Shown here: positions 22,197-57,918 of the stretch, one piece after another
Position numbering within the stretch: position 1 is the first letter of the stretch
Layout: every line of letters begins with the position of its first letter
Virus record (IMG/VR): IMGVR_UViG_3300042429_001107
DNA length: 64,000 bases
Reading direction: 5' to 3' (one strand)
Source: a virus
Made by a program: the position numbers and the translations under genes
Notes under the pieces: model-generated
Told to the model about the DNA's origin: nothing
The model's input: only the letters and a program-made list of their open reading frames with translations
Database searches by the model: none

Positions 22197-24230
22197 ATGT
22201 CTGGAATAAAATATTTAGCCGATATCTACGAAAAAAAAGGAAAGGATTTTATAGAAAAACTTTTCAGCCAGGAACTTAGTGTTACTGAGAATCTTGATGG
22301 ATCATCTTTTTCTTTCGAAAAAGATTTTACTGGTGACAATATTTCTTTTTATAAAAAAGATCAGGAAAATCCTATAACTAAAGTTGATAGGATATTAATG
22401 AGATACTACGATAAGCCTATAAATTATATAGATTCCCTTCCGGAGTCAGTAAAAGCTGAGATACCAAAAGGATGGAGATTTGGTATGGCTTATTTTCCTA
22501 ATACAAAGCCAGTAAGAATTGAATATGAAAGACTTCCAAAAAATCATTTAATTCTAACACATATTCTTGTAAGGGACGAATTTGGCGAAACCACAAGAAC
22601 TATACAGGAGAAAGACGAACTAGATGAATGGGCAGATAAGCTCGGAGTAGAAAAAGCACCTATTATTTTCCAAGGAAAATTAAACGACGATCAGAAAATG
22701 TCTATTATGGATTTTTTATCAACTCCATTAATGGATTTAAAAACACGTTTCAAGACTGAAAGTTTTTCTAAGTATCTAATATCTTTATTAAATCCAGAAA
22801 TAATTAAGACCACTTTAGGTAAGGATTTACAAGGAGAGATAGACTCCTTGGTTTTTAGATTCGAGGAAGATGGTAAGGAAGATGTTGTTTTAGCTAAAAT
22901 GGTTGATCCAGTTTTTTATGAAATAACAAGAGATAGAAAAGTTACAAGGTCTTCTTACTTCCCTAGCGACATTTATTCTCTTTGTCTAATAGATATTATG
23001 AATTTCATATTAGAAAGAGGTGTAGAGAGCTTTAGCGCAGAAGGAACTGAGCCTGAGGAGAGGTATATTAATTTTGTATTCTCCGTTTTTAAAACTTTTT
23101 CGTACGAAGAGGGAGAAAGATATATTGGTGCAGACTTTGATAAACCTGAGTATCTTAAATCTGAAAACTTTGACATTAATAAGGAACTAATAGTCGATAA
23201 AGATGTTGTTGAGTATTTAGATAAAGATGAAGTTTATTGTGATATCCTCCAAATGGTATTAAATTCATTTAGAAAATTCAAAAGAAAACCTCATGGGTTT
23301 TTCACTGAGGGTCTAATAGAACAATTCAATCTTCTTGTTGAAGAGATAGCTGATTATATAAATGCTAAAAGAAAAGATAGGATAGAAGAATCTTTAGGAG
23401 TTCCCACATTTGTTTGGTTTAAAAAAACAGGAAGTAGATTTAAAATCACTGACGATGAATCTTTAGAAGATGAAATAGATTTAGATTCTATTATAGAAAA
23501 TACAGTATTTAATGAGTCTGATCTATTATCCGAATCATTAAATGATATCAATGAAAAAGATGACGAATCTATTGAAGAATTAAAAAAATCCGAAGATGAC
23601 GCATCTGAGTTCTTTTCATTTAAAGATTTTAAAAAAGTGGTATCAACTCATAAAGAGAAAAAGAAAACAAAAATATTAAATGAGGAAAACCAAAAAGTTA
23701 ATTTAATAATTGGTAAATTCCAGCCATTTAATAACGGACACCTTAAAATGTGTACAAGACTTAAAAAAGAAAATGACCTCCCCGTTTTTCTTTGTGTAGT
23801 TCATCCAGGAGGAGAAACTTCATCTAAAAAATACCCTTTTTCCGAAGAGGCTATTAAGAAGTCTATAGGATCTTTAACAGCAGAAAATGATAAATTATTT
23901 GCTGGTTATAAAATAGTTCCTACTGATCTTTTAGAAGATGCTATTAAATCTATTGCAGAGAATGTAAATCCTATATCAGTTTGTATAGGAGAGAAAGACT
24001 TCGAGAATATGGTTTTACAAAGAGACTGGGTTAGAAATAAATACGATCTTAATGGAAATGATATTGAAATATTTAAAACTCCATATTGGTCTAATAATGA
24101 AGAGATAAGATCGTATATACAAAATACAGATTTCCAGAAATTCAAAAATAAAGTACCTAAATCTATTGCTGTTCTTTTTAATGAGTTTGTAAAGGAAATT
24201 CAAGAATCTTCTAATGAAGATAATATATAA
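22197..24230 (+). CDS. RNA-ligase-like (ATP-grasp nucleotidyltransferase) domain fused to a C-terminal HIGH-type cytidylyltransferase-like domain
   Basis: VTENLDGSSFSF (motif I-like), LGVEKAPIIFQG, LAKMVDP; C-terminal IIGKFQPFNNGH and PFSEE. Confidence 0.6.
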   Translation: MSGIKYLADIYEKKGKDFIEKLFSQELSVTENLDGSSFSFEKDFTGDNISFYKKDQENPITKVDRILMRYYDKPINYIDSLPESVKAEIPKGWRFGMAYFPNTKPVRIEYERLPKNHLILTHILVRDEFGETTRTIQEKDELDEWADKLGVEKAPIIFQGKLNDDQKMSIMDFLSTPLMDLKTRFKTESFSKYLISLLNPEIIKTTLGKDLQGEIDSLVFRFEEDGKEDVVLAKMVDPVFYEITRDRKVTRSSYFPSDIYSLCLIDIMNFILERGVESFSAEGTEPEERYINFVFSVFKTFSYEEGERYIGADFDKPEYLKSENFDINKELIVDKDVVEYLDKDEVYCDILQMVLNSFRKFKRKPHGFFTEGLIEQFNLLVEEIADYINAKRKDRIEESLGVPTFVWFKKTGSRFKITDDESLEDEIDLDSIIENTVFNESDLLSESLNDINEKDDESIEELKKSEDDASEFFSFKDFKKVVSTHKEKKKTKILNEENQKVNLIIGKFQPFNNGHLKMCTRLKKENDLPVFLCVVHPGGETSSKKYPFSEEAIKKSIGSLTAENDKLFAGYKIVPTDLLEDAIKSIAENVNPISVCIGEKDFENMVLQRDWVRNKYDLNGNDIEIFKTPYWSNNEEIRSYIQNTDFQKFKNKVPKSIAVLFNEFVKEIQESSNEDNI

Positions 24231-24239
24231 TTAAAAAAA

Positions 24240-25076
24240 ATGAAGAAGATATTAAGCTTTAAAGATTTTTCACTATACGAATATCAAAAATTTGACAACT
24301 CACTATACAATAAAATTAACGAAGCTACATTTACGGACGAGGTGGAGAAAAGAAAATATGATCCGGTAGCTTTCAAAAAAATGAGGGCTGCAGTTTTCTT
24401 TCTAAACGCACAATATCCTTTCTTTGGAGGTCTTTTGTCTAGATTAATCATTAGAGAAAATAGAGGTATAAAAACAATGTGTACTGATGGAGTAAGTATT
24501 CACTACAGCCCAGGATTTGTACATGAACATACTGATGATGAAATAATGTGGGTAATAGCCCATGAGGTTTTACATTGTGCTTTATTACATTTCCTAAGAA
24601 TGCCAGGAAAGGATTCTAAAACAGTAAGTATATGGAATTATGCTACAGATTATGCTTTAAATCAGATGCTTACACCAGTCGATGAATCAAATCCAGGTAA
24701 TCCTAAGCCTAGCGAAAAGAGAGGAGACTCTATAGGTAAAATGCCAAAGGGAGCATTATATCCTGGATGTGGAAGAGTTTCTTACGATAAAGAATTTGTT
24801 GGATTATCTGCTGATAGCATTTATGGTATTTTAATTAAAAATGGATTTCAACCAGATCCGGAAGATTCGCAAGCTGTTAATCCTCCACCACCTCCACCAC
24901 CACCAGCTCCTCCACAGATACCTGTAGTCGGAGATATTATATTCGACCCAGCTAGTGGTAACTACGGTGTGGTAAATAGCGTAGATGAAGATAATGATTC
25001 AGTGGATTATGATCCTATACCAAAATCTAAGGTTCCTGAATATATTAGAAAAAAATACGAGCAAGACAATTTATAA
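24240..25076 (+). CDS. Putative zincin metallopeptidase (DUF2201_N-like), module 1
   Basis: PFFGGLL, TMCTDG, AHEVLHC (HExxH), WNYATDYALN; poly-Pro linker; C-terminal KOW-like segment. Confidence 0.8.
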   Translation: MKKILSFKDFSLYEYQKFDNSLYNKINEATFTDEVEKRKYDPVAFKKMRAAVFFLNAQYPFFGGLLSRLIIRENRGIKTMCTDGVSIHYSPGFVHEHTDDEIMWVIAHEVLHCALLHFLRMPGKDSKTVSIWNYATDYALNQMLTPVDESNPGNPKPSEKRGDSIGKMPKGALYPGCGRVSYDKEFVGLSADSIYGILIKNGFQPDPEDSQAVNPPPPPPPPAPPQIPVVGDIIFDPASGNYGVVNSVDEDNDSVDYDPIPKSKVPEYIRKKYEQDNL

Positions 25077-25085
25077 AATCGTAAT

Positions 25086-26069
25086 ATGAAAACAACAATA
25101 ACCGGAATAAGAATCCAAGAAATGGATCCACCTGCAGGAACGGGAGGAACAGGACCAACTCCGCCACCACCACCTATTGGAGATCCTGAAAACGTTGATA
25201 AATGGAAAGAAGATGAGGATGAGAAAAAAAGGGATCAAGATGGAAAACCAGAAGAAGAAGATGATGAGGATACTTTCGAAAGAGGCTTAACTGGAGGTGG
25301 AGGAACTTCTAATGTTGGGGGAGTATTACCAACAGGATCTCTAGGAGATCTTGGTGGAGATTCTGGATTAAATGGTGAAACATTAGGAGAAGAATGGGAG
25401 ACATCATTAAAAAGATCAGAAAATGCTGGAAACGTACCTGCTTCTGTTAAAAGAGCATTAGATAAATTAAAAAGACCTGTTATTGATTGGAAATCTGAAC
25501 TTGAGAAATATATTGATGATGCAGTATCAAAAACTAAATATAAATTACCTGCTAGAAGATTTATTGGAGGCGGTGATGCTCAATACGGATATAAAAGATA
25601 TAAAGAGGACTTTGAGAACTTAGTGATTGCTATAGACACATCAGGATCTATAACTAGACCTATGATTGAGCAATTTCTTTCAGAGACAATGAAAATTACA
25701 GAGGATTACGCTCCACAAAAAACAGTAATACTTTATTGTGATACCCAAGTTTATGCCCCAGATATTTTAGAACCAGGAGATACTCCAGATTTTAATAAGA
25801 TTGCTGGAGGTGGGGGAACTAATTTTTGGCCTCCTTTTAAATGGGTGGAAAAAAACATACTTGACGTGGGTGAAACCCCAACGGTATTTATATACTTCAC
25901 TGATGGATTTGCAGAATTTCCTAAATCATCCGAATACGGAATAGATGGTTATGATGATAGATGTATTTGGGTATTCTTATCTTTTAATGGAGAGCCTTTT
26001 GGAAACGATCAACCTTTTGGTGAAAGAATAGATATCACACTGGCAAATAAAGAAGTGGAAACTATATAA
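25086..26069 (+). CDS. vWA domain protein (DUF2201-like), module 1
   Basis: IDWKSEL, IDTSGS MIDAS, GGGGTNF, FTDG. Confidence 0.85.
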   Translation: MKTTITGIRIQEMDPPAGTGGTGPTPPPPPIGDPENVDKWKEDEDEKKRDQDGKPEEEDDEDTFERGLTGGGGTSNVGGVLPTGSLGDLGGDSGLNGETLGEEWETSLKRSENAGNVPASVKRALDKLKRPVIDWKSELEKYIDDAVSKTKYKLPARRFIGGGDAQYGYKRYKEDFENLVIAIDTSGSITRPMIEQFLSETMKITEDYAPQKTVILYCDTQVYAPDILEPGDTPDFNKIAGGGGTNFWPPFKWVEKNILDVGETPTVFIYFTDGFAEFPKSSEYGIDGYDDRCIWVFLSFNGEPFGNDQPFGERIDITLANKEVETI

Positions 26070-26107
26070 AAATAGATATATAAGAAATAAAATAAGAAAT
26101 ATTAAGG

Positions 26108-27697
26108 ATGAAAAAAATCTATAACTTTAAAGAATTCGTAAATGAATCTTACAATGTAGACGAAGGGGTATTATCTAATATCGGTAGCAAGATTTCACAA
26201 TGGGCTAAACAGCTTATGACCGCAGTAAGAAATGGCATTATTAGAATGATCTCATCTGGTCCTAAAAAGGGATTACCTGCTTATGTGTTATTTAATTCAG
26301 ATGAAGGATCTATCTCAGATCAAGTTGAAAAATTCTATCGCGGAACACCTTATTATGATATGAACAATATCAATAATCCTTCCGTAGCAAACGAGGCAGT
26401 GATTCCTTTGGAATGGGATAGAGAGGATGATGTACCTAATTCACTTCCCGAAGAAATAGAATCAGATATTAGAAGAAGTCTTAAAGCTTGTTTATCCATT
26501 GCAGATCAAATGGATGCCACAACTGATATGGACGAAAAAGCAAGATTACAAAGGGAATTAAGAAAAGTTAAACCATATTTTATTTATGGAGCACCTGGTA
26601 TTGGTAAAACACAAATCATAGCTAAAATATGCGATGAGCTTGGGTTAAACCTATTGAATTGCGATGGATTAAGTGCAGAACCAGTAGACTTTGCTGGTGT
26701 ACCTAAAGTGGTAGATATTGAAGCTCCATCAGCAGAAAATCCATTAGGTAGGGGGGTTACAAGATCTAACGTAAGTGCGGATATTTTACCATATGATAAC
26801 GGAAAAGGTGGAAAAGGGGGTATCTTATTTATTGATGAATTCAACCGTATGCCTGTTGAAGTACAAAAGATATTCTTATTATTAGCTCAGCAAAGAAGAC
26901 TTGGTGTTAATTATGACATGCCTAATAGATGGTATATCGTAGCAGCAGGAAATAGAAAAGTTGATGACCCTAAGGGTGGTATTGTTGAAATGGGATCTGC
27001 ATTACAGGATAGATTTGAGATTGTCAATCTTATTACTAATCCAGCATCAATGAGAAAATATGTAGAGACTACTCCTGGATTATCTGATATATTCCTACCA
27101 GAACTTCTTGATTTCTTAGATTTTGATGCTAGTTGGTTCCACATGAATGATCCAACTGCTAAGAAATTAAAATACCCTACTCCTAGAGCTTGGGAAGATG
27201 CTTCTAGAGCAGTTAGAAGGGTTCTTCAAGAGTATGAACAAAAAGGAATATCAGAAGTGCCTCATAGCGTATTAGCAAGAGAATTTCAGAAGAACGTAGG
27301 TAGAGATGCTGCTGTAATGTTCTTAGATTTCTATAAGATAGCTCAGCAGATCCCAGTTAAAGAATTATCGCTTCCTTTTACTGATCCTGATAGAGCTCCT
27401 ATTCCTAGTGAATACCAAGGAAAAACTAAAAAATCAGGTACTACTAATAGAACTGATTATGAGCACGCTTTATTCACTGCTGTAATTAGAAAAAGCACGG
27501 AATTACCAAAATTAACAAGCACTGAGTCTTGTAACTTTTCAAAATGGTTAAGAAGAGTTAATGCACCAGAGATGGGAGCAATGGCAATCACATCATTCTT
27601 CCAAAAACATCCTCATTTATTAGAAGATTATGCAACTATGGAATGTTTAGGACCATTAGCTGATCAATGGGGAGCAGAAATTGGAGTTCAATTTTAA
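26108..27697 (+). CDS. MoxR-like AAA+ ATPase, module 1
   Basis: GAPGIGKT, ILFIDEFNR, AAGNR, LQDRF, PTPRAW; GATATATA at 26075-26082. Confidence 0.85.
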   Translation: MKKIYNFKEFVNESYNVDEGVLSNIGSKISQWAKQLMTAVRNGIIRMISSGPKKGLPAYVLFNSDEGSISDQVEKFYRGTPYYDMNNINNPSVANEAVIPLEWDREDDVPNSLPEEIESDIRRSLKACLSIADQMDATTDMDEKARLQRELRKVKPYFIYGAPGIGKTQIIAKICDELGLNLLNCDGLSAEPVDFAGVPKVVDIEAPSAENPLGRGVTRSNVSADILPYDNGKGGKGGILFIDEFNRMPVEVQKIFLLLAQQRRLGVNYDMPNRWYIVAAGNRKVDDPKGGIVEMGSALQDRFEIVNLITNPASMRKYVETTPGLSDIFLPELLDFLDFDASWFHMNDPTAKKLKYPTPRAWEDASRAVRRVLQEYEQKGISEVPHSVLAREFQKNVGRDAAVMFLDFYKIAQQIPVKELSLPFTDPDRAPIPSEYQGKTKKSGTTNRTDYEHALFTAVIRKSTELPKLTSTESCNFSKWLRRVNAPEMGAMAITSFFQKHPHLLEDYATMECLGPLADQWGAEIGVQF

Positions 27698-31284: not shown

Positions 31285-32691
31285 ATGATAATCGATATAG
31301 AAAATACAGGAGGCGGTTTAACGGTCTCACATTACACCGAAGAAGGTGAAGTTAATATGTTAAAAATCCCAGTACCAAAGGCATTACAATTTGTTTGGCA
31401 AAAGACACAGGATTACGATAAAGCCAAAGATAAAGAATGGCTTTCTTGGGACGCAAAACCTATTAAGAAAGTTTCTTCCACAAAATTTGATAAGTATAGA
31501 GTAGTAGAAATATTAGAAGCTATAGATCCGGAGATAACTAAACCTTTATGGGATTATCAGACTCCGAAAAAATACTTTGTCGATATAGAGGTAGAGATCA
31601 CAGATAATCGTGCAGATTCATTAGACACTGAGAATGCTAAGAATAGAGTGCTTTCAATAGGAATGGCTTCTTCTCACGGAAAGGTACTAGTGATTGGTCT
31701 ACAAGATATGACACCCGAAAGGATTCTTAAAATTGAAAAAAGAATTAAAGAGCATTTTAAAGACCAGGAAGGAGATTGGACATTTAATTATAGGAAGTTT
31801 GAAAGTGAATTTGATATGATGTACACATTTCTTTCTAAGTTAGTTCCAAAAATGCCTTTAATTACTGGATGGAACTGGTTTGGGTATGACTGGCCTTATT
31901 TGATAAACAGAGCTAGGAGATTAGGTATAGATCCTAAAATTGCTTCACCGAGTGGAGTTCTTCTAGGAAAGAATCAAATACCTATGCATGTACTAATGGT
32001 TGACTATCTGGACATTTACAAAAAATGGGATAGGGTAGTTAAGATCAGAGAATCTAATTCTTTAGACTATGTGGCAACTCAAGCAATTGGTATTAAAAAA
32101 ATTGCTTATAATGGAACATTAAAAGATTTATATGAATCTGATTTTGATACATTCATATTCTATAATGCTATTGACTGTGGTCTTGTTCATTATATTGATA
32201 GAAGACTCGATACTCTTTCTACATTCTTTAAAATAGCAGAAGTTAGTAGAGTGGAGATTAATAGAGCACTTTCTCCTGTATGGACTACAGAAGTACTTAT
32301 GTTAAGAAAATTCTTAGAAAGAAAAAGAGTTATACTAAGTGAAAGAAAAGAAGAGAACCACGTAAAATTTGAAGGAGCCTATGTAAAGAAACCAGAGAGA
32401 GGAATTTATGAATGGATCGCTTGCTTTGACTTTGCTTCACTGTATCCTAATACTATGATGCAATGGGGAATTTCACCAGAGGTTTATATAGGAAAGAATC
32501 TAAAAGAAATACCAGAAGGAGCAATTAAGACATCATCAGGAGCAGTATTTTACAGCAAAGAAGGAAAGGAACCTATACTTAGAGAAATATTACAAGGATT
32601 ATACTCGCAAAGGAAAGCAACTAAGAAGAAATATTTTGAATGTGAAAAAGAAATAGAAAAAATTAAAAAAGTAATAAAAACAAAACAATAA
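31285..32691 (+). CDS. Family B DNA polymerase, N-terminal part (3'-5' exonuclease + motif A)
   Basis: Exo I DIEVE, Exo II GWNWFGYDWPY, Exo III YNAID, motif A FDFASLYP; ends in the first fingers helix. Confidence 0.9.
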   Translation: MIIDIENTGGGLTVSHYTEEGEVNMLKIPVPKALQFVWQKTQDYDKAKDKEWLSWDAKPIKKVSSTKFDKYRVVEILEAIDPEITKPLWDYQTPKKYFVDIEVEITDNRADSLDTENAKNRVLSIGMASSHGKVLVIGLQDMTPERILKIEKRIKEHFKDQEGDWTFNYRKFESEFDMMYTFLSKLVPKMPLITGWNWFGYDWPYLINRARRLGIDPKIASPSGVLLGKNQIPMHVLMVDYLDIYKKWDRVVKIRESNSLDYVATQAIGIKKIAYNGTLKDLYESDFDTFIFYNAIDCGLVHYIDRRLDTLSTFFKIAEVSRVEINRALSPVWTTEVLMLRKFLERKRVILSERKEENHVKFEGAYVKKPERGIYEWIACFDFASLYPNTMMQWGISPEVYIGKNLKEIPEGAIKTSSGAVFYSKEGKEPILREILQGLYSQRKATKKKYFECEKEIEKIKKVIKTKQ

Positions 32692-34194: not shown

Positions 34195-36627
<2,433 letters not shown>

Positions 36628-39270: not shown

Positions 39271-39918
39271 ATGAATAGACCTAAGAAGCTTAGCAATTTT
39301 AAAGAATTCGTAAAAGAATACGGAGATATAGATGGAAAAGAAGATACCAAAAAAACCCCATGTATAATTTTAGCAGGACCTCCGGGATGTGGTAAGGGAA
39401 CACAAGCTAGAATTATAGCCAAAGGTATGAGATGGAAACACATTTCAACTGGGGATATATTAAGGGATTCTGATAATAAAGAGATCAAGAAGTTAATGAA
39501 AACTGGTAATCTTCTTCCTGATGAGATTGTAGGTAAAGAGCTTATAGATTATCTTAAAAAATTAACTAAACATAGCGATCCTAAGGGATATATTTTTGAC
39601 GGATATCCTAGAAATCTTCAACAGAAGGCTATATTTGACGAGATTTGTAGAATTAATAATATCTCATTAGAATATGTTTTCTTTTTAAATGTCGCAGAGA
39701 AGATATTAAGGGAAAGAATAAAAGAAAGAAGTAAATCTTCGGGAAGATCTGATGATAAAAACGAGGAAGCATTCCAAATTAGAATGGATGAATATAATGA
39801 ACAGACGTTACCTATGATAGAATCTATGAGAAAAGGAGGAGGATTTTTGGAAATATCAGGGGAAAATAAATTGGATGATATTACTAAGCTGATATTTAAT
39901 AAAATTAATGAAATTTAA
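39271..39918 (+). CDS. adk: Adenylate kinase (short LID) with N-terminal extension
   Basis: GPPGCGKGTQA, HISTGDILR, DGYPRN, GRSDD. Confidence 0.9.
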   Translation: MNRPKKLSNFKEFVKEYGDIDGKEDTKKTPCIILAGPPGCGKGTQARIIAKGMRWKHISTGDILRDSDNKEIKKLMKTGNLLPDEIVGKELIDYLKKLTKHSDPKGYIFDGYPRNLQQKAIFDEICRINNISLEYVFFLNVAEKILRERIKERSKSSGRSDDKNEEAFQIRMDEYNEQTLPMIESMRKGGGFLEISGENKLDDITKLIFNKINEI

Positions 39919-45930: not shown

Positions 45931-46989
45931 ATGGAGAATTATTACAATATATTAGGTGTACAAGAAAATTCTGATCAGAACTCGATAAAAAAAGCTTATC
46001 GTGAGATGGCTAAAAAATATCACCCGGATAAAAACAAAGAACCCAACGCTGAAGAAAAATTTAAAAAAATAACCGAGGCATACGAAAATATTGGTGATCC
46101 AGCTAAAAGACAGGAATACGATAGGAAAAGAAGCTTTCAGAATCCTTTCTCTAGCGGATTTGATGATTTTAGTAGATTTAACACCAATTGGAATCACACA
46201 GATCCTTTTGCTGACCATTATTCTCATGGTAGGGGATTTACACCGGAAGCTCCTAAAGGTACTTCATTAAATATAACACTTAAATTAGATTTACAAGATA
46301 TACTTAAAGGTGTTGATAAGAGGATAAAAATCAAGAGAGATAAAAAATGTAATCCCTGTTCAGGAACTGGTTCGGAAAATGGTGCTTCTTTCCAGACATG
46401 TGGTACATGTAAAGGATCGGGATTTATAACAGTAAATAGAATAAATGGATTTGTTCAGATGAATTCAGTTAGCACTTGCGGTTCATGTGGAGGTGTAGGT
46501 AAGGTAGTACTTGAAGTTTGTTTATATTGTTTAGGTAATGGACTAAAATCAGAGGAAGATATTATAGATGTCAACATACCTGCTGGAGCATCAGATGGTA
46601 TGCAATTTGTTGTTTCTGGTAAAGGTAACGAGGGTAAAGGTAACGGTAAAAGCGGGGATCTTTATGTTAAGATTAAAGAAATACCTAATACTGAATTTAT
46701 TAGAAAAGGAGTTGATCTTATCACTAGTAAACAAATAACTTTTATAGAAGCAATATTAGGAACTAATATAGATGTGGAAATGCCTGATGGAGAGAGTGTT
46801 AAAACAGTAGTATCTCCAGGAACTGTACCTGGTACAGTTCTAAGTTTTGCTCAGAAAGGAATTCCTGTTTTAGGATATGGTGGTATTGGTAATTTTCTTG
46901 TTGAATTAAATATAAAAATCCCAGAAAATCTTACGGACGATCAGAAAAAATTCTTAGAAGAATTAAGACAAAACGAAATATTTAATTGA
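45931..46989 (+). CDS. dnaJ: DnaJ chaperone
   Basis: J domain with HPD, four CxxCxGxG repeats, C-terminal domain. Confidence 0.95.
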   Translation: MENYYNILGVQENSDQNSIKKAYREMAKKYHPDKNKEPNAEEKFKKITEAYENIGDPAKRQEYDRKRSFQNPFSSGFDDFSRFNTNWNHTDPFADHYSHGRGFTPEAPKGTSLNITLKLDLQDILKGVDKRIKIKRDKKCNPCSGTGSENGASFQTCGTCKGSGFITVNRINGFVQMNSVSTCGSCGGVGKVVLEVCLYCLGNGLKSEEDIIDVNIPAGASDGMQFVVSGKGNEGKGNGKSGDLYVKIKEIPNTEFIRKGVDLITSKQITFIEAILGTNIDVEMPDGESVKTVVSPGTVPGTVLSFAQKGIPVLGYGGIGNFLVELNIKIPENLTDDQKKFLEELRQNEIFN

Positions 46990-51041: not shown

Positions 51042-52217
51042 ATGGAAGAAATAGATTACATGTCAATGAGCTTAGAAGAGCTCAATCAAAAACTTTCGGA
51101 GTATCAAAAAAAATCTTCGGATTTCTATAATACTGAACAAGGTATTAAGCTAACACTTAACAGTATATACGGAGCGACTGGGAATCAGTATTTTGCTTTG
51201 TTCAATACAGATGTTGCAGAGAGTGTTACATTACAAGGCCAGGACATTTGGAAATTTGCTGAGAAGATAATAAACAGGTATTTCAATGATATGTGGCATC
51301 TTGATACGGAGCTTCACGAAAAAATGGGAGTTCGTAATGTCAGAAAAATAACATTAGACTTTATTATATACGGAGATACAGATTCCAATTATATCAATCT
51401 AGGAGCTGTTATGGATTCTTGTGAATTTGATTCAGATCTAGAACCATTTGAATTTGTAAAAAGACTTAATGAATTTAGACTTAAAGAATACATTAAGAAA
51501 TGCTATGACATCTATTCTGAAAAATGGGGCACAGATAACTATCAGGATTTTGAGCTAGAGAGTTTATCATATGCTGGTATATTCTTGGGTAAAAAGAAAT
51601 ATGTATTACATATAGCTTGGCAGGATCCTAATAAGGATTTATTTCCTAGGCTTTCTAAAGTTAAATCGACTGGTATCGAATTAGCTCAAGGTGGTACTGC
51701 TCCTTTCGCTAGAGAGAAACTTACGTTCTTATTACAGCATATTTTCGAGAAAGGTAAAGCTTTTGATATTAGAGAATTTGTAAAGATCCTTAAGAATATA
51801 AAATCGGAATTTAAGGTACAAAGCCCAGATCAAATATCTGTAGGAACTTCTGTTAATAATATAGAGAAATTCATTGTAAACGACACAACAAAATTCGAAG
51901 TTGCAAAAGGATGTCCAATGCACGTAAGAGCAGCAGGATATCACAACTATCTTCTTAATAATTCCAAGCATAAAGTTAAATACAGCTTAATCAGATCATC
52001 TGAGAAGATTAAGTACTATTATGTTAAGGTAAACAACGAGAGAGAGAATAATGTATTTGGATATCTTAACGGAGCTTATCCCTATGAGCTAGCTCCCCCC
52101 GTAGATTTTGACGAACAATTCAATCGAGTAATTTTAGATCCAATAAATAGATTCATTGAAGCTATGGGATACTCTCCTTTATCACCCAACCTACTTCTTG
52201 TAAGAGCTTTGTTTTAA
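51042..52217 (+). CDS. Family B DNA polymerase, C-terminal part (motifs B, C, thumb)
   Basis: KLTLNSIYG, VTLQGQ, YGDTDS, KKKY, GCPMHVRAA. Confidence 0.9.
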   Translation: MEEIDYMSMSLEELNQKLSEYQKKSSDFYNTEQGIKLTLNSIYGATGNQYFALFNTDVAESVTLQGQDIWKFAEKIINRYFNDMWHLDTELHEKMGVRNVRKITLDFIIYGDTDSNYINLGAVMDSCEFDSDLEPFEFVKRLNEFRLKEYIKKCYDIYSEKWGTDNYQDFELESLSYAGIFLGKKKYVLHIAWQDPNKDLFPRLSKVKSTGIELAQGGTAPFAREKLTFLLQHIFEKGKAFDIREFVKILKNIKSEFKVQSPDQISVGTSVNNIEKFIVNDTTKFEVAKGCPMHVRAAGYHNYLLNNSKHKVKYSLIRSSEKIKYYYVKVNNERENNVFGYLNGAYPYELAPPVDFDEQFNRVILDPINRFIEAMGYSPLSPNLLLVRALF

Positions 52218-52257
52218 TTTATTTTTTTGGATATATAAAAGGATCTAAAAAAATTAA

Positions 52258-53757
52258 ATGAAAAATAGTAGAATAAAAAACTTCAATGATTTTGTTAATG
52301 AATCTTACAATCCGGAGCTTAACGAAGGTTTCTTTTCCAGTATAGCTAATCTTATAAAAAAAGTTGGTGGCTGGGCAGGAGAAATGATCAAAGCAATAGG
52401 ACAGGGTTTAATTAAACCAATACCTTCTGGACCAATGAAAGGTATGCCTGTAGCAATGTTATTCTTACCTGAAAATGGGCCTATCTATCAGCAAATGTTG
52501 AAATATCAGCAAGGGATTAATCCTATAATGGAAGCAAGAATACCTTTAGAATACACAGGTGAAGACCAGAGTGTTAGAAACATTTCAGCTGAGCAATTAA
52601 AGAATGACGTAGTTAAATTATATAGGAGTAAAGACAGAGGGGGAAGAGCTAAACCCATCTTTATTTATGGAGCACCTGGTATTGGTAAGACTGAAATAGT
52701 CGGACAAGCAGCAGATGAGCTTGGTGTACCTGTTATGAAGTTGGATCTTCAATTTATGAATCCGGAAGATTTCTTAGGAATACCTAGTAGACATGATATA
52801 ACTCCTGTTGAGGTCGAAGACGGTAAAGTTACTAATTTTGGTAAAGGATTCACTAGAGCAAATCCCCCTGCATTATTACCACCAGATAATGGTAAAGATA
52901 ATAGAGGTGGTATCATATTTATGGATGAGATGAACAGAGCTAATAAAGCAGTTCTAAACTCTATCATGCAATTCGTACAAAAAGGAGAAGTTGGGCCTTA
53001 CAAATTACCAGACAAATGGGTTATTGTTGCAGCGGGTAACAGACCAGAAGAAGCGGAAGGCGTAGCAGATTTTGACTTTGCACTTGCTGACCGTTTCACT
53101 ATTAAGAACTATGTTCCTACAATTGAAGGATATGCTTCATGGGCAGATAAGAACGAAAAAATTCTGCCTGAACTTGTAACATTCTTAACATTTAATCAGG
53201 AGTATTTCCACAATTTAGATGCTGATAAAAAATCATTAAACTACCCAACACCTAGATCCTGGACAGATGGAGCTTTAATTCTTCATGATGAGATAACAGA
53301 TCAAAGAGTTAATACTTGGAGAGATATACCTAGAGAAGAAATTCTTAACATTTTCTATGATCAAGTTGGGCCTCAAGCAGCTGGTAAATTTGTTGCTTAT
53401 CTTGATATACTTAGAAAAGTTAGTGATACAGAGATGGATAATATGATTAACAATCCTGCATCTGCTAAGATGGTTGCTGAAGCACAAGCACCAGGAGGTA
53501 AAAGTATCCTTTATGGGCTTATTGAAATGGTGATGAAAAGAGTAGATTCTTATTCTCCGCAAAGTCTTTATAATGTAATGGAGTACTTTAATAGATATAA
53601 CGAATTAGAACCTCTTAGCTGGCTGTATAAAGATATTCTAGTAAGATACCCAGATTTTAGATTTGGAGGTTCATCATCTACACCAGAAGATGAATTAAAA
53701 CACAAAGCAGCTTTACTAGTAACTGGAGGAGCTAAAAGTAAAGGACTTCAACAATGA
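52258..53757 (+). CDS. MoxR-like AAA+ ATPase, module 2
   Basis: GAPGIGKT, IFMDEMNR, AAGNR, LADRF, PTPRSW; GATATATA at 52230-52237. Confidence 0.85.
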   Translation: MKNSRIKNFNDFVNESYNPELNEGFFSSIANLIKKVGGWAGEMIKAIGQGLIKPIPSGPMKGMPVAMLFLPENGPIYQQMLKYQQGINPIMEARIPLEYTGEDQSVRNISAEQLKNDVVKLYRSKDRGGRAKPIFIYGAPGIGKTEIVGQAADELGVPVMKLDLQFMNPEDFLGIPSRHDITPVEVEDGKVTNFGKGFTRANPPALLPPDNGKDNRGGIIFMDEMNRANKAVLNSIMQFVQKGEVGPYKLPDKWVIVAAGNRPEEAEGVADFDFALADRFTIKNYVPTIEGYASWADKNEKILPELVTFLTFNQEYFHNLDADKKSLNYPTPRSWTDGALILHDEITDQRVNTWRDIPREEILNIFYDQVGPQAAGKFVAYLDILRKVSDTEMDNMINNPASAKMVAEAQAPGGKSILYGLIEMVMKRVDSYSPQSLYNVMEYFNRYNELEPLSWLYKDILVRYPDFRFGGSSSTPEDELKHKAALLVTGGAKSKGLQQ

Positions 53758-54686
53758 TAAGAAAATTAAACGAGAATAAATATAAAACTGGCAAGATAAT
53801 TACTAGTTTTTCTAATTATGTAAGGTTTATAAATGAATCCTATTCTTTTGATCCTGAAGAGGTTAATAGGAAAATTAAAAGAGTAATTCTATGGATAAAC
53901 ATCAATCAAGGATTCTACGGTGAATTACTAAGCCACGTAAATATATTCGGATCATCTAATATTGATCCTAAGACTATGTGCACAAACGGTAGGGATATTA
54001 TATTCCATCCCGAATTTGTAATGAATCAGACAGAAGCAGCATTAAGGTTTGTTCTATGTCACGAAATTCTTCATTGTATAGGAGATCATGGTAAAAGAAG
54101 AGAAAATAGGAATCCCCAAGGATGGAATATAGCTTGCGATTATGCTATAAATCCTCTACTCCAGGGAGAGACAGGATTCGAATGGCCAGTATCAGAGGAC
54201 GGATCTAGAGCAGGTTTATATGATGCTAGATTTGAAGGAATGAGAGCGGAAGATATTTATCAACAATTAGAAGATGAAGGTGCTCTTAATAAACTTATTA
54301 ATGATCCTAATGTTAAAAAACAAACAGATACTGGTAGGGTAGAAGACGAGGATAAAGAACAACCAGAGCCTGACTCTGATCTGGTTATACAAGAAGGTGA
54401 TTTCCCTCAAGAGGATGAACCTGGAGATGAGCCTGGTGATGAGCCCGGAGATGAACCTGGTGATGAACCTGGAGAACCTGGTGACGAGCCTGGAGAACCT
54501 GGTGACGAGCCTGGAGAACCTGGTGATGAGCCTGGAGAACCTGGTGATGAGCCTGGAGAACCTGGTGATGAGCCTGGAGATAATAAAAAACAATTACCTA
54601 GAGTTGGACAGAAAGTTATAACAAAAGAAGGAAAAGAAGGAACTATAACCAAAGTTTATCCTAATGGGGATATAGAAATTAGTTAA
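53754..54686 (+). CDS. Putative zincin metallopeptidase (DUF2201_N-like), module 2
   Basis: GFYGELL, TMCTNG, CHEILHC, WNIACDYAIN; (EPGD)n linker; C-terminal KOW-like segment. Confidence 0.8.
   Translation: MIRKLNENKYKTGKIITSFSNYVRFINESYSFDPEEVNRKIKRVILWININQGFYGELLSHVNIFGSSNIDPKTMCTNGRDIIFHPEFVMNQTEAALRFVLCHEILHCIGDHGKRRENRNPQGWNIACDYAINPLLQGETGFEWPVSEDGSRAGLYDARFEGMRAEDIYQQLEDEGALNKLINDPNVKKQTDTGRVEDEDKEQPEPDSDLVIQEGDFPQEDEPGDEPGDEPGDEPGDEPGEPGDEPGEPGDEPGEPGDEPGEPGDEPGEPGDEPGDNKKQLPRVGQKVITKEGKEGTITKVYPNGDIEIS
54414..54581 (+). repeat. 12-bp and 21-bp tandem repeats encoding DEPG / EPGDEPG
   Basis: GATGAGCCTGGAGAACCTGGT units directly visible. Confidence 0.9.
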
Positions 54687-54691
54687 ATTAT

Positions 54692-55639
54692 ATGTTAATT
54701 AAAGACGGGGATTATTCAGTAATATCTGATAATAAGAATAAAGATAATACACCTGAGACAGGGAATACAACTAATACAGGGAAACCAGAAGGCGGTGATC
54801 CTAATTTTGAAGATACTCCTAAAAAAATGGAAGACATACCTACAGTTGGTAGTGAATCACCTGGGGTAAAAACATTTAGGGATTTTGATACAACTGGTTC
54901 TTCTACACAAAAAGCAAAAGAGGTAAAAGCAGATAAGCCAAGTAAGATATTTAAAGGAGATTTAAAGACACCAAATTGGGCTGATATATCTAATCAGGCT
55001 TTAAGTAGATCTAAGCTATCTGACAAAGCTAAAAGACTGGTAAGGGCTTTAAAAACTAGTGAACCTCTAGTTAATTGGAAAAAAGAATTAAAGAAATTCT
55101 TTGATAATACATTCAAATCTAGCGAATGGGTTTTACCTAATAAAAGATTCCTTGCTGGCGGTGATATGATATACGGTCGTAAAGAAACTGGAGAAGACAC
55201 TTTAAAAACAATTGTTGCTGCTGTAGATACTTCAGGTTCGATTTCGAAAGAACAGGTTAAAGCATTTGTTAATGAGATAATGTATCTATGTAAAACATTT
55301 GATGCTGACAAGACTATAATTATATACTGTAGTGATGATATTGATAATGTTGATATAGTTAAAAAAGGGGGTCAGCCAGATCTCACTAAAATAGCTTCTA
55401 CTGGGGGTAATGATAAAGGATTTATTCCGCCATTCCAATGGGTCGAGAAGAATAAAATAAAGCCATCAATATTTATTTACCTAACAGATACAGGAGGAGA
55501 AATGCCAGATCCTTATAAATATGGAATAAGTAAATATAGAAAGAAAGTATTATGGTTTATATGCTCTCCAGAAATGTACAATCCTCCTTCATTTGGAAAA
55601 ATACTTTTTGCACCAGTTGGTTCTATAAGACCTAAATAA
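54692..55639 (+). CDS. vWA domain protein (DUF2201-like), module 2
   Basis: VNWKKEL, VDTSGS MIDAS, STGG, YLTDTGG. Confidence 0.85.
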   Translation: MLIKDGDYSVISDNKNKDNTPETGNTTNTGKPEGGDPNFEDTPKKMEDIPTVGSESPGVKTFRDFDTTGSSTQKAKEVKADKPSKIFKGDLKTPNWADISNQALSRSKLSDKAKRLVRALKTSEPLVNWKKELKKFFDNTFKSSEWVLPNKRFLAGGDMIYGRKETGEDTLKTIVAAVDTSGSISKEQVKAFVNEIMYLCKTFDADKTIIIYCSDDIDNVDIVKKGGQPDLTKIASTGGNDKGFIPPFQWVEKNKIKPSIFIYLTDTGGEMPDPYKYGISKYRKKVLWFICSPEMYNPPSFGKILFAPVGSIRPK

Positions 55640-55654
55640 TAAGAAATTAAAGAA

Positions 55655-56524
55655 ATGAAAAGAATTAAATCTTTTAAGTTATTCGAATCATATTCTATAG
55701 GAATATTTGGAGTTAATGAAGTTGATACTGATGACGAATATATTAATGCTTATGCTTCGGCAAGATCAGGAATGATCAAATCTAATTTTTATAAGGACTT
55801 TAAAAATTGGTTAGTTTATAAAGCTTATGAGAGAATATTAATGGATAATGAAGGAGAATCATATAATGATCCCACGTCAATAATAAAATCCGAGGATTCT
55901 AAAATACAATCTCTCGTAAAATACCCTATGAATTATTCTGACGACGGATTTGATTACGAAAAATCTATTAAGGAAATGGGGGTTACAGATAACATTAATG
56001 ATGTAATAACTAGATTAGCTAGAGAATTAAAAATATGTGAACCTGCTAAAAATCCAAATCTACCTCAAGTAAATAAAGCGGTTTCGGTTATTATCGATGG
56101 AGACATTAATGAAGTATTAGATAACATATTTTGGCCAGGTAATATGCCTAATATTAAAGAATTAAAATATTTAGATCTTTTTGGAGATGAAAGAAGAGAA
56201 AATTTTGGGATCAATAATTCACTAAGAGAATCATTAGAGAGAACATGTAATAAATATGCTTCTATGGAGAGGGATATAAATTCATTGGGTAAAAAATTCA
56301 TGAATCTTTTAAAAGAGATTGGTGAAAGCCAAATAGAATCTTTAAGAGTATTAGAATTTCCTCAGGTTGTTACTGAAGCTATAGTGGAATATTTTAGTAA
56401 AGCTGAAGATTCATTTAAAGTTGCTGATGAGGTAAGAAAAGGAAGTGAGCATATATACAATAAGATAAAATCCTTATTACCTAATATTGATACTGCAGCA
56501 GATCTAGGAGATCTAGGATTCTAA
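55655..56524 (+). CDS. Hypothetical protein with targeting-like N-terminus
   Basis: MKRIKSFKLFES; ends AADLGDLGF. Confidence 0.55.
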   Translation: MKRIKSFKLFESYSIGIFGVNEVDTDDEYINAYASARSGMIKSNFYKDFKNWLVYKAYERILMDNEGESYNDPTSIIKSEDSKIQSLVKYPMNYSDDGFDYEKSIKEMGVTDNINDVITRLARELKICEPAKNPNLPQVNKAVSVIIDGDINEVLDNIFWPGNMPNIKELKYLDLFGDERRENFGINNSLRESLERTCNKYASMERDINSLGKKFMNLLKEIGESQIESLRVLEFPQVVTEAIVEYFSKAEDSFKVADEVRKGSEHIYNKIKSLLPNIDTAADLGDLGF

Positions 56525-56545: not shown

Positions 56546-56983
56546 ATGACTTTTGGCGAATATAAAGAAAACGGAATGGAAGGTACAGAAGAAGATTCTC
56601 AGCTTCAAGGAATTAAACAATTAGGTTCTTCATTAGATGAGCATTTTGTAAACCTATTGCTTTTCCAAGCACAACTTAAAATTATGCACTGGGGTACAGA
56701 ATCTTATTCACAGCATAATGCTTATGGTATGACTTATGATTCTATATCTGATGGATTAGACACATTAGTAGAATCTTATCAAGGATATCACGGAAGAATA
56801 GATTTTGGTAATAGCTGCGAGTTCATAAGCTTCTCTGATGTGGAACCTAATTCATGGTTAAAAACCATGATGGAATGTTTAACTACATTAAGAGAAAATG
56901 TTAAAGAATCTGATTTACAAAATCTGATAGATGAACTTATAGCAGGTGTTTCTAAATTGATGTATTTATTAACTTTGAAGTAA
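56546..56983 (+). CDS. Ferritin/Dps-like four-helix protein (DUF5856-like)
   Basis: MHWGTESYSQHNA...YD...DTLVESYQG...LQNLIDE...YLLTLK. Confidence 0.75.
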   Translation: MTFGEYKENGMEGTEEDSQLQGIKQLGSSLDEHFVNLLLFQAQLKIMHWGTESYSQHNAYGMTYDSISDGLDTLVESYQGYHGRIDFGNSCEFISFSDVEPNSWLKTMMECLTTLRENVKESDLQNLIDELIAGVSKLMYLLTLK

Positions 56984-56997
56984 TCATTTCTTTTAAC

Positions 56998-57918
56998 ATG
57001 AGAATAATGAATTTTTCACAATTTTTAAACGAGAACTCAGAAGGTGGATATTCTTCTTTTGAAGCTTTACCTAAACCTCTCAAAGATTTTTTTATTGACG
57101 GGGTTGGAAAAAACATACTATCTAAAGTAGTCGGACTTAAAAACTTTTCAATAGAACTTCAAGGATCAGAGATATATTTCGTTATTAACGGTAATAAAAT
57201 ACTAGTTCCGTTTGTTAATTATGTTTATGATCAAGTTGTGCCTAATACTAAATCATTAACAAATGAACCAATCATTTATAATTTTTATAATAGTTTAGGA
57301 ATGGATTTAGATAATTCTAGCTACAGATTCTATAAACATGATATAAATGGTTTATCTAGATTATTCTATCCTATATTTACCAAACTTAGAGATATTATAA
57401 AAGATGATAGACCACTTCTAAATCCTTTTAATGATATTGATCTAAAAAACAACCGTCTTATACAATTATTAGATAAATTAGGTGCTTATATTGATACTAG
57501 TGATCAAAGGAAAAAGAAAGGGATTTTAAGATTCTCATTAAAAGATTTTGGTTATGGACTTATCATACAACCTAATGGTTATATGAGAATTGATTACGGT
57601 GATAAAACACCAATTCTTACAACTAAGATGGAAATAACAGCACCTGCTTATACTGAGGATGATCTCAATTTAAAATTATCATATTTAGTTGTTTATCTTA
57701 TGAAAGATATACTTAAAAAATATAATGTTCCAGTAAAAACTATAAACTTGCTGGCTAAATTCTACGGAGATAGTGATCTTAACGAATATGATAACCTAAT
57801 AAAAGAAATATCTTTAAACTATCCAGGAGCAACTTCTCTTCTTCCTGATCCTAACTCGGTACTAAATCCTAGCGTAAAGAAAGGATCTAGTATGCTAAGA
57901 AGATTTGGAGTTATCTAA
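56998..57918 (+). CDS. Hypothetical protein with capsid-targeting-like N-terminus
   Basis: MRIMNFSQFLNEN; ends KKGSSMLRRFGVI. Confidence 0.55.
   Translation: MRIMNFSQFLNENSEGGYSSFEALPKPLKDFFIDGVGKNILSKVVGLKNFSIELQGSEIYFVINGNKILVPFVNYVYDQVVPNTKSLTNEPIIYNFYNSLGMDLDNSSYRFYKHDINGLSRLFYPIFTKLRDIIKDDRPLLNPFNDIDLKNNRLIQLLDKLGAYIDTSDQRKKKGILRFSLKDFGYGLIIQPNGYMRIDYGDKTPILTTKMEITAPAYTEDDLNLKLSYLVVYLMKDILKKYNVPVKTINLLAKFYGDSDLNEYDNLIKEISLNYPGATSLLPDPNSVLNPSVKKGSSMLRRFGVI

Follow-up and report, generated by a model that had tools for sequence, protein, structure and literature searches.

Two diverged MoxR ATPase and split metallopeptidase-vWA modules in a large lake phage, candidates for trimmed head cargo

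A 64,000-nucleotide (nt) stretch of viral DNA (the window) encodes two paralogous gene trios, each comprising a MoxR-type AAA+ ATPase, a zinc metallopeptidase, and a von Willebrand factor A (vWA) protein. The window corresponds to positions 70541-134540 of a 148,938-nt IMG/VR virus fragment (IMGVR_UViG_3300042429_001107, 32% G+C). CheckV estimates the completeness of this 149-kb record at 54%, and its 5′ end lies in the interior of a T4 gp23-type capsid gene. The source is a large uncultured T4-related lake phage, present in many metagenomes of lake water from 2018-2025. The six open reading frames (ORFs), recognized in a first-pass annotation, are all present on the + strand (Table 1), in the order pep1-vWA1-ATPase1 (module 1) and ATPase2-pep2-vWA2 (module 2). 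The explanation favored here is that these proteins may enter the phage head as cargo and be trimmed there by the prohead protease.

The window harbors two diverged copies of a phage system composed of a MoxR-type AAA+ ATPase and a metallopeptidase-vWA protein. In BLASTP comparisons, the ATPases share 34% identity (E 5e-71), the peptidases 31% (E 8e-21), and the vWA proteins 38% (E 1e-44). Profile searches place all six above the curated Pfam cut-offs: the ATPases match AAA_5 (PF07728) with 28.5 (ATPase1) and 40 bits (ATPase2; cut-off 22), while DUF2201_N (PF13203) is recovered with 83.7 and 76.2 bits (cut-off 23.2) and the DUF2201 vWA domain (PF09967) with 67.8 and 55.3 bits (cut-off 26.4). 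The catalytic motifs (HExxH, metal-ion-dependent adhesion site (MIDAS), Walker A/B, and arginine finger), initially described as intact, are indeed complete in both sets. The peptidase zinc site consists of HEVLH or HEILH and an invariant histidine five residues past the second one (H103, E104, H107, and H112 are invariant). The vWA proteins carry a D-T-S-G-S MIDAS sequence and a later T-D, with D179, T180, S181, S183, T265, and D266 invariant in eight vWA sequences. Both ATPases have GAPGIGKT (Walker A), (I/M)DE(F/M)NR (Walker B), AAGNR (sensor 1), and DRF (arginine finger), and these motifs are 97-100% conserved among the 58 and 120 relatives of the two clades. By sequence, both are MoxR-class AAA+ proteins predicted to form hexamers and to hydrolyze ATP. 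An NCBIfam search returns nothing informative, PADLOC models give only P-loop-level matches to the module proteins (E >2e-4) and no known defense or counter-defense family, and a DNA-level search of phage records with module 1 gives no match.

The peptidase ORF and the vWA ORF of each trio each encode one half of a single protein. pep1 and pep2 cover the front of PF13203 (profile positions ~5-159), vWA1 and vWA2 cover its tail (~191-258) together with PF09967, and PHROG 1314 (394 positions) spans the peptidase ORF and its vWA ORF with E values of 1e-28 to 1e-40. Each trio, initially counted as a three-gene set, is therefore a two-component system of MoxR ATPase and metallopeptidase-vWA protein whose second component is split. 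The halves of module 1 lie in one frame, separated by TAA and 9 nt; those of module 2 lie in different frames, and vWA1 and vWA2 each begin with their own ATG. Stop read-through or recoding that would join pep1 to vWA1 was considered and rejected on account of the different frames in module 2 and the separate start codons of both vWA genes. Within module 2, the pep2 start also overlaps the ATPase2 stop. A 462-kb phage (LR756500.1) encodes an ATPase followed by a fused peptidase-vWA protein of 491 amino acids (aa). Close peptidase homologs are all split, many of them with a KOW-like C-terminal unit, and distant ones are fused, so the split is derived and common to both modules. The break between the two genes of this lineage falls within the disordered linker of the protein.

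The two halves are predicted to re-associate. The modeled complex of pep2 with vWA2 has an ipSAE score of 0.71 (best of three controls, 0.00), with at least 93% of contacts agreeing between prediction runs and a partner pLDDT of at least 80. Of 80 solved complexes, 58 attained the scoring mark, as did 2 of 110 mismatched pairs; these rates apply only approximately here, since alignments made for this analysis were used. Two interfaces appear in the model, one between the peptidase core and vWA2 residues 86-126 and the other between the pep2 C-terminus (282-310) and vWA2 residues 1-11. A PDB sequence search with ATPase2, pep2, and vWA2 finds no relative; with no solved relative of pep2 or vWA2 by sequence, the complex prediction is unlikely to reproduce a known structure. 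Foldseek with the pep2 model retrieves only weak zincin matches (selecase, jannalysin, BlaR1, and SPRTN; E ≥0.04), and no specific peptidase family is therefore assigned.

The ATPase2 model (pLDDT 84, pTM 0.72) resembles most closely, among solved folds retrieved by Foldseek, NorQ (9qh4, TMt 0.66) and CbbQ2 (6l1q, TMt 0.58), with E ~5e-7. The identity proposed at first, a machine made of a MoxR-class AAA+ ATPase, a zinc peptidase, and a vWA partner, is borne out by the Pfam matches, this NorQ/CbbQ-like fold, and the predicted binding of the halves. The ATPase2 family includes at least 762 database clusters, of which the best 120 align over the full length at 46-95% identity. The ATPase1 set comprises 58 clusters at 43-96% identity (the next ones fall to 35%), is monophyletic (FastTree, support 0.999), and is nested within the family in a tree rooted on the single homolog of LR756500.1. 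The extra N-terminal segment noted in both ATPases is real and is kept in more than 100 homologs, in the order leader, second xNE(G/S) site, amphipathic helix, IPSGPKKGxP, and third site. The third site reads hydrophobic-x-E↓A (↓ marks the putative cleavage position), then (K/R)(V/I)PLE(Y/W). In the ATPase2 model, residues 1-23, which hold VNE15↓S and LNE23↓G, are disordered, helices span residues 23-33 and 38-48, and residues 87-93 form a disordered loop containing IME92↓A.

The leader at the front of this segment resembles a signal for entry into the phage head. In T4, the prohead protease makes a single cut in the capsid-targeting sequence (CTS) MKTYQEFIAE, and proteins fused to this sequence are encapsidated (PMC8442874). 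The leader here has the form (K)xFxxF(V/I)NE. The F-x-x-F-(V/I)-N-E-type start that the first-pass annotation assigned to both ATPases and both peptidases holds for ATPase1 (FKEFVNE), ATPase2 (FNDFVNE), and pep2 (YVRFINE); pep1 has the variant FKDFSLYEY, followed by a true INE↓A site at residues 26-28. A scan of all 161 ORFs finds [FY]xx[FY][LIV]xE in the first 25 residues 15 times and at other positions 5 times, and some 25 proteins start with some form of the leader. Every split-type peptidase homolog (P0199-P0271) bears it, including that of one relative (G005) when a TTG start is used, whereas the distant fused homologs (P0272-P0293) begin right at the peptidase core without it. Judged from these homologs, the leader is a lineage-specific add-on. 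A mere RNA-level or start-region signal was rejected as its explanation, given conservation at the protein level despite divergent DNA. Three further ORFs (G000:1831-2718, G000:64685-66205 on the − strand, and L047:11864-12739) carry a leader and then LNEG(I/F)(F/L)S with a hydrophobic helix, as the ATPases do. Since head-region and other proteins share this bipartite start, the second N-terminal element is also a portable module.

Prohead proteases of the T4 and phiKZ types cleave after Glu, often at several sites per propeptide (PMC5694885). An S77 prohead protease was not found in the 54%-complete record, whose sequence begins inside the capsid gene. The head region of a relative (G012, locus L047), whose capsid protein is 93% identical to the gp23-type capsid protein of the record, encodes a Peptidase_S77 domain (38.7 bits, cut-off 27) fused to a repeat-rich scaffold and adjoining the capsid gene. 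This protease-scaffold protein contains nine [LIVMF]NE sites, a density (13.3 per 1000 aa) 7-fold that of the genome as a whole (1.8). The capsid protein itself has SLNE↓SAG at residues 40-46 (LNE 41-43), conserved in seven relatives and marking its N-arm, and the cultured phage PTm1 displays the same pattern. All six [LIVMF]NE sites of ATPase1, ATPase2, pep1, and pep2 fall within the first 28 residues. Small Peptidase_S77 and Gp23 matches in another relative (G003) are surrounded by accessory genes; the head genes were taken from L047 in their place. The leader, the S77 protease, and the placement of the NE sites make packaging of the modules in the head plausible, at roughly even odds on these sequence features. 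The capsid-targeting reading of the first-pass annotation is supported indirectly, by the T4-CTS-like leader, the S77 protease-scaffold with its NE sites, the capsid SLNE↓SAG, and the motif at the head operon described below, packaging itself being a prediction.

Both loci follow an (G/A)ATATATA sequence, as first reported: AATATATA precedes pep1, and GATATATA precedes ATPase1 and ATPase2. The number of RATATATA occurrences in the window is not above chance (22, with 22.5 expected). Of the 30 GATATATA copies in the 149-kb record, 22 are located 4-27 nt upstream of a start on the same strand (0.4 expected), and leader and motif are associated across genes (odds ratio 5.3, p 9e-4). In L047, GATATATA heads the operon of protease and capsid genes as well as other genes of the head region. 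It also stands before genes of the tail region, a collagen-like gene, and many genes for leader-bearing proteins; the polymerase, clamp, topoisomerase, and reductase genes around the modules are devoid of it. This distribution suggests that GATATATA is a putative late promoter. Metatranscriptome contigs from four lake RNA libraries match parts of pep1, vWA1, and ATPase1 (93-99% identity); such contigs reveal no strand, level, or ends, may stem from DNA contamination, and are not counted as proof of transcription.

Four close relatives (G001-G004) retain both ATPases and both vWA genes. Their ATPase1 orthologs are 58-60% identical in G002-G004 and 99% in the near-identical G001, and ATPase2 orthologs in close relatives are 74-81% identical. 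The module-1 vWA gene of G002 is a tandem duplicate (L026:973-1956 and 1960-2967) with an intact MIDAS in both copies. In G012 (248 kb, 85% complete), in G009, and in five other contigs, a module-1-type copy was found and module 2 was not. Directly behind the C-terminal part of the DNA polymerase gene polB, G012 has the ortholog of window positions 56546-56983, and module 2 is missing along with its two flanking leader-bearing genes. The module 2 slot of G007 holds a 146-aa chimeric ORF (L164:2402-2842) that joins residues 5-55 of ATPase2 (56%, E 4e-16) in frame with residues 243-312 of vWA2 (57%, E 5e-30) at a short similar stretch (GLI-PP); to judge from these matches, it is a deletion remnant of module 2. 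The remnant in G007 and the absence in G012 show that module 2 is dispensable, although its loss in relatives is no proof that the copy of this phage is inactive. The modules had been proposed to be two specificity variants, with a degenerate copy in relatives named beforehand as an observation that would speak against this; the loss of module 2 in some relatives is of that kind and weakens the proposal, as both copies stay intact in four close relatives and one does not in G007 and G012. Deletion or absence of module 2 in some relatives and duplication of the vWA gene in G002 point toward an accessory role directed at the host. More distant two-copy genomes were surveyed through IMG/VR loci. 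The main text of the omics paper on phage PA5oct does not mention MoxR or vWA.

These features can be arranged into a scheme in which the ATPase and peptidase genes would be transcribed late from GATATATA-type promoters and the T4-CTS-like leader would dock their products on the scaffolding core of a T4-type prohead. The vWA half, having no leader, would be carried into the prohead by binding to the peptidase half. There, the S77 protease would trim the proteins after Glu at [LIV]-N-E-type sites, and the ATPases, with three sites each, may shed up to ~92-96 residues. The trimmed proteins would remain in the head as cargo, most likely to be ejected with the DNA and to be active at once in the next host. 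There, in the manner of NorQ/NorD, the MIDAS of the vWA half would grip an acidic residue of the target, the ATPase hexamer would remodel the target, and cleavage would fall to the tethered zincin. The targets would differ between the modules, module 2 being an accessory lost by some relatives. We assign this explanation as a whole, in which split MoxR/peptidase-vWA modules are deployed as trimmed head cargo, a probability of about 0.5. Action inside the maturing head appears less likely than action after ejection, a weakly grounded preference that stems from the position of the modules outside the structural clusters, the dispensability and variability of module 2 (as for T4 internal-protein genes), and the duplication of vWA adaptors. 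A more far-reaching version is rather unlikely: the head would be pre-loaded with one or two remodeling proteases (MoxR ATPase, zincin, and interchangeable vWA adaptors) among ~25 tagged cargo proteins, which once injected would dismantle chosen host proteins, such as defense or takeover targets, before phage gene expression, with the prohead protease arming the ATPase by removal of its prodomain.

Several observations weigh against deployment as head cargo. vWA1 and vWA2 have no leader, and both modules lie among replication genes, outside the head cluster. Some 25 leader proteins, including an adenylate kinase, would make an unusually large and odd cargo, and the specificity of the prohead protease is an inferred one. 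Residues 50-85 of ATPase2 are confidently packed in the model and highly conserved, so that this part of the segment may be a working part of the ATPase and not a disposable propeptide. The packed head has no ATP supply and the hexamer is too big for passage through the tail, which means that the machine would need to assemble after ejection. Tenacibaculum phage PTm1 and Flavobacterium phage MaF61, cultured relatives of the capsid lineage, are without the ATPase and the module.

The main rival, which is possible but unlikely on balance, is that the modules are late cytoplasmic assembly chaperone/protease systems that help virion parts to fold or assemble, or trim them, acting outside the head or transiently at the prohead and absent from the mature particle; the leader would then serve for transient docking on the scaffold or as a handle for another partner. 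A virion-assembly role with peptidolytic processing was proposed for such proteins by Iyer et al. 2021 (PMC7824862), and cellular MoxR-vWA pairs such as NorQ/NorD are maturation chaperones (PMC9976466). The late-promoter-like motif upstream of the modules, the nearby gene for a DnaJ co-chaperone (45931-46989), and the folded, conserved appearance of part of the ATPase N-terminal segment all suit a role in assembly. Such a role leaves unexplained why the leader matches the CTS and its cleavage site so closely and why all [LIV]NE sites are N-terminal. Nor would an essential assembly factor be expected to suffer deletion, as module 2 has in G007, though module 1 could cover for it.

The alternative that the modules act in the cytoplasm of the infected cell, in host takeover, counter-defense, or replication-linked remodeling, as N4 gp24-like ATPase homologs might, is improbable. 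It would make the N-terminal peptide unrelated to the capsid, for instance an oligomerization or membrane-binding helix or a signal for the module's own peptidase. Homologs occur in 753 phage records, many of them annotated as N4 gp24-like or MoxR ATPases and including N4-like podophages; in N4 itself, such genes presumably lie in the non-structural early/middle region. The embedding of the modules among polymerase, clamp, topoisomerase, and reductase genes fits this alternative, as do the amphipathic helix after the second NE site and the dispensable module 2 and duplicated vWA gene, as would be expected of host-specific accessory genes. However, the leader co-occurs with the T4-type head protease lineage and is missing from homologs outside it, and the NE-type motif also marks the capsid N-arm and the scaffold. 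GATATATA, moreover, stands before the modules but not before the adjoining replication genes, and no match to known defense or counter-defense families is found. Deployment as trimmed head cargo remains the favored explanation.

Table 1. Positions of the module genes, their N-terminal segments, and the upstream motifs in the window
Feature	Position	Strand	Description
pep1	24240-25076	+	N-half of DUF2201-type protein: leader, zincin HEVLH core, poly-Pro linker, small C-terminal beta unit
vWA1	25086-26069	+	C-half: last part of PF13203 and DUF2201 vWA domain, full MIDAS, no leader
ATPase1	26108-27697	+	MoxR-class AAA+ (AAA_5); in a monophyletic clade (58 clusters)
ATPase1 N-terminal segment, residues 1-96	26108-26395	+	FKEFVNE↓S, VDE↓G, amphipathic helix, SGPKKGLP, ANE↓A
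ATPase2	52258-53757	+	MoxR-class AAA+; NorQ/CbbQ-like fold; family with at least 762 clusters in the database
ATPase2 N-terminal segment, residues 1-92	52258-52533	+	VNE15↓S, LNE23↓G, IME92↓A
pep2	53754-54686	+	N-half: leader FSNYVRFINE↓S, HEILH zincin core, (GDEP)n linker, C-terminal KOW-like beta unit
vWA2	54692-55639	+	C-half, full MIDAS, no leader; predicted pep2 contacts via residues 1-11 and 86-126
AATATATA, one-base variant of GATATATA	24222-24229	+	ends 10 nt before pep1 start
GATATATA motif	26075-26082	+	25 nt before ATPase1 start
GATATATA motif	52230-52237	+	20 nt before ATPase2 start, directly past the end of the polB C-part gene

The surroundings of the modules hold further observations. 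The family-B DNA polymerase is encoded by two genes 18.3 kb apart, one for the exonuclease and the early polymerase part (31285-32691) and one for the rest (51042-52217). The first polB part begins 3.6 kb downstream of module 1, and module 2 directly follows the second. In G007 (L164:3-1429), the polB C-part is interrupted by a 380-aa ORF and intein-like flanking sequence between two polymerase pieces. A collagen-repeat protein (PF01391, 243 bits; 34222-36627) is encoded behind GATATATA between two ribonucleotide reductase genes; its counterpart in G003 has only 204 aa. The DnaJ protein is full length, with J, zinc-finger, and C-terminal domains, and its gene sits among replication genes. As to proteins with the leader, the adenylate kinase (PF00406, 119 bits; 39271-39918) begins with LSNFKEFVKE and is an odd candidate for head cargo. 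Those beside module 2 (55655-56524 and 56998-57918) have related short C-terminal peptides (..DLGDLGF and ..RRFGVI), and LR756500.1 (L119:8820-10516) encodes a leader-bearing leucine-rich repeat protein and a neighbor, both ending in ..FGFFD(N). The peptidase homologs P0265-P0271, P0274, and P0291 bear the leader and have no HExxH, and may represent an inactive third paralog type.

If the leader does load these proteins into the head, phages of a widespread freshwater group would bring a complete, energy-dependent protease machine into the host cell. No injected effector of this class has, to our knowledge, been described for tailed phages. The sequence rules for leader and cleavage, if true, would also allow virion cargo to be recognized in hundreds of uncultured large phages from sequence alone. 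Even without packaging, the window documents a peptidase-vWA protein that is stably split, a pair of paralogous modules that diverged long ago, and a conserved N-terminal domain on a large, uncharacterized branch of phage MoxR ATPases. The pairing of MoxR and metallopeptidase-vWA genes in phages is already known, from the N4 gp24-like ATPase and the group 2.2 jumbo phages. New are the presence of two modules in one genome, the conserved split, the CTS-like N-terminal leader, and the upstream GATATATA motif. The present analysis further places the ATPases in two clades, quantifies the motifs, describes the ATPase N-terminal segment with its three sites, and identifies a remnant left by deletion, which shows that module 2 can be lost.

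Among known systems, the nearest is that of the group 2.2 jumbo phages, in which Iyer et al. 2021 described a MoxR AAA+ ATPase with an N-terminal metallopeptidase-vWA fusion and proposed a role in assembly (PMC7824862). This pair (PHROGs 1297 and 1314) and the modules described here share AAA_5/MoxR, PF13203, PF09967, gene adjacency, and intact catalytic motifs. The present phage differs in having two diverged modules, a split peptidase-vWA protein, a leader on ATPase and peptidase, an ATPase N-terminal extension of ~95 residues with three Glu-ending sites, and the late-promoter-like motif. The T4 internal proteins IPI-III and Alt, which bear the CTS and are trimmed by gp21, resemble the ATPases and peptidases in their short N-terminal aromatic-x-x-F-(I/V)-x-E peptide, in a lineage with T4-type capsid protein and S77 protease, and in the variable, dispensable nature of the cargo genes. 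In contrast to these small basic proteins, the proteins here are large enzymes, the P2 position of their sites is nearly always Asn, the tagged proteins number ~25, and packaging and cleavage are predicted.

The cellular pairs NorQ/NorD and CbbQ/CbbO provide the closest solved ATPase folds, at only 12-14% identity between NorQ or CbbQ and ATPase2 in structural alignment, and likewise have a vWA partner with a MIDAS. In the general model for MoxR-vWA systems, the vWA domain plugs the pore of the hexamer (PMC9976466). These pairs differ from the phage modules in having neither peptidase domain nor leader and in serving as cellular maturation factors for one enzyme. Acidianus two-tailed virus (ATV), likened here by description only, is an archaeal spindle virus without a peptidase, leader, or protease system, and the role proposed for its MoxR protein is extracellular tail growth. 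That protein, p618, is nevertheless a major component of the virion and binds the vWA protein p892 (PMC4124505), so a virus can carry an ATPase of this kind in its particle.

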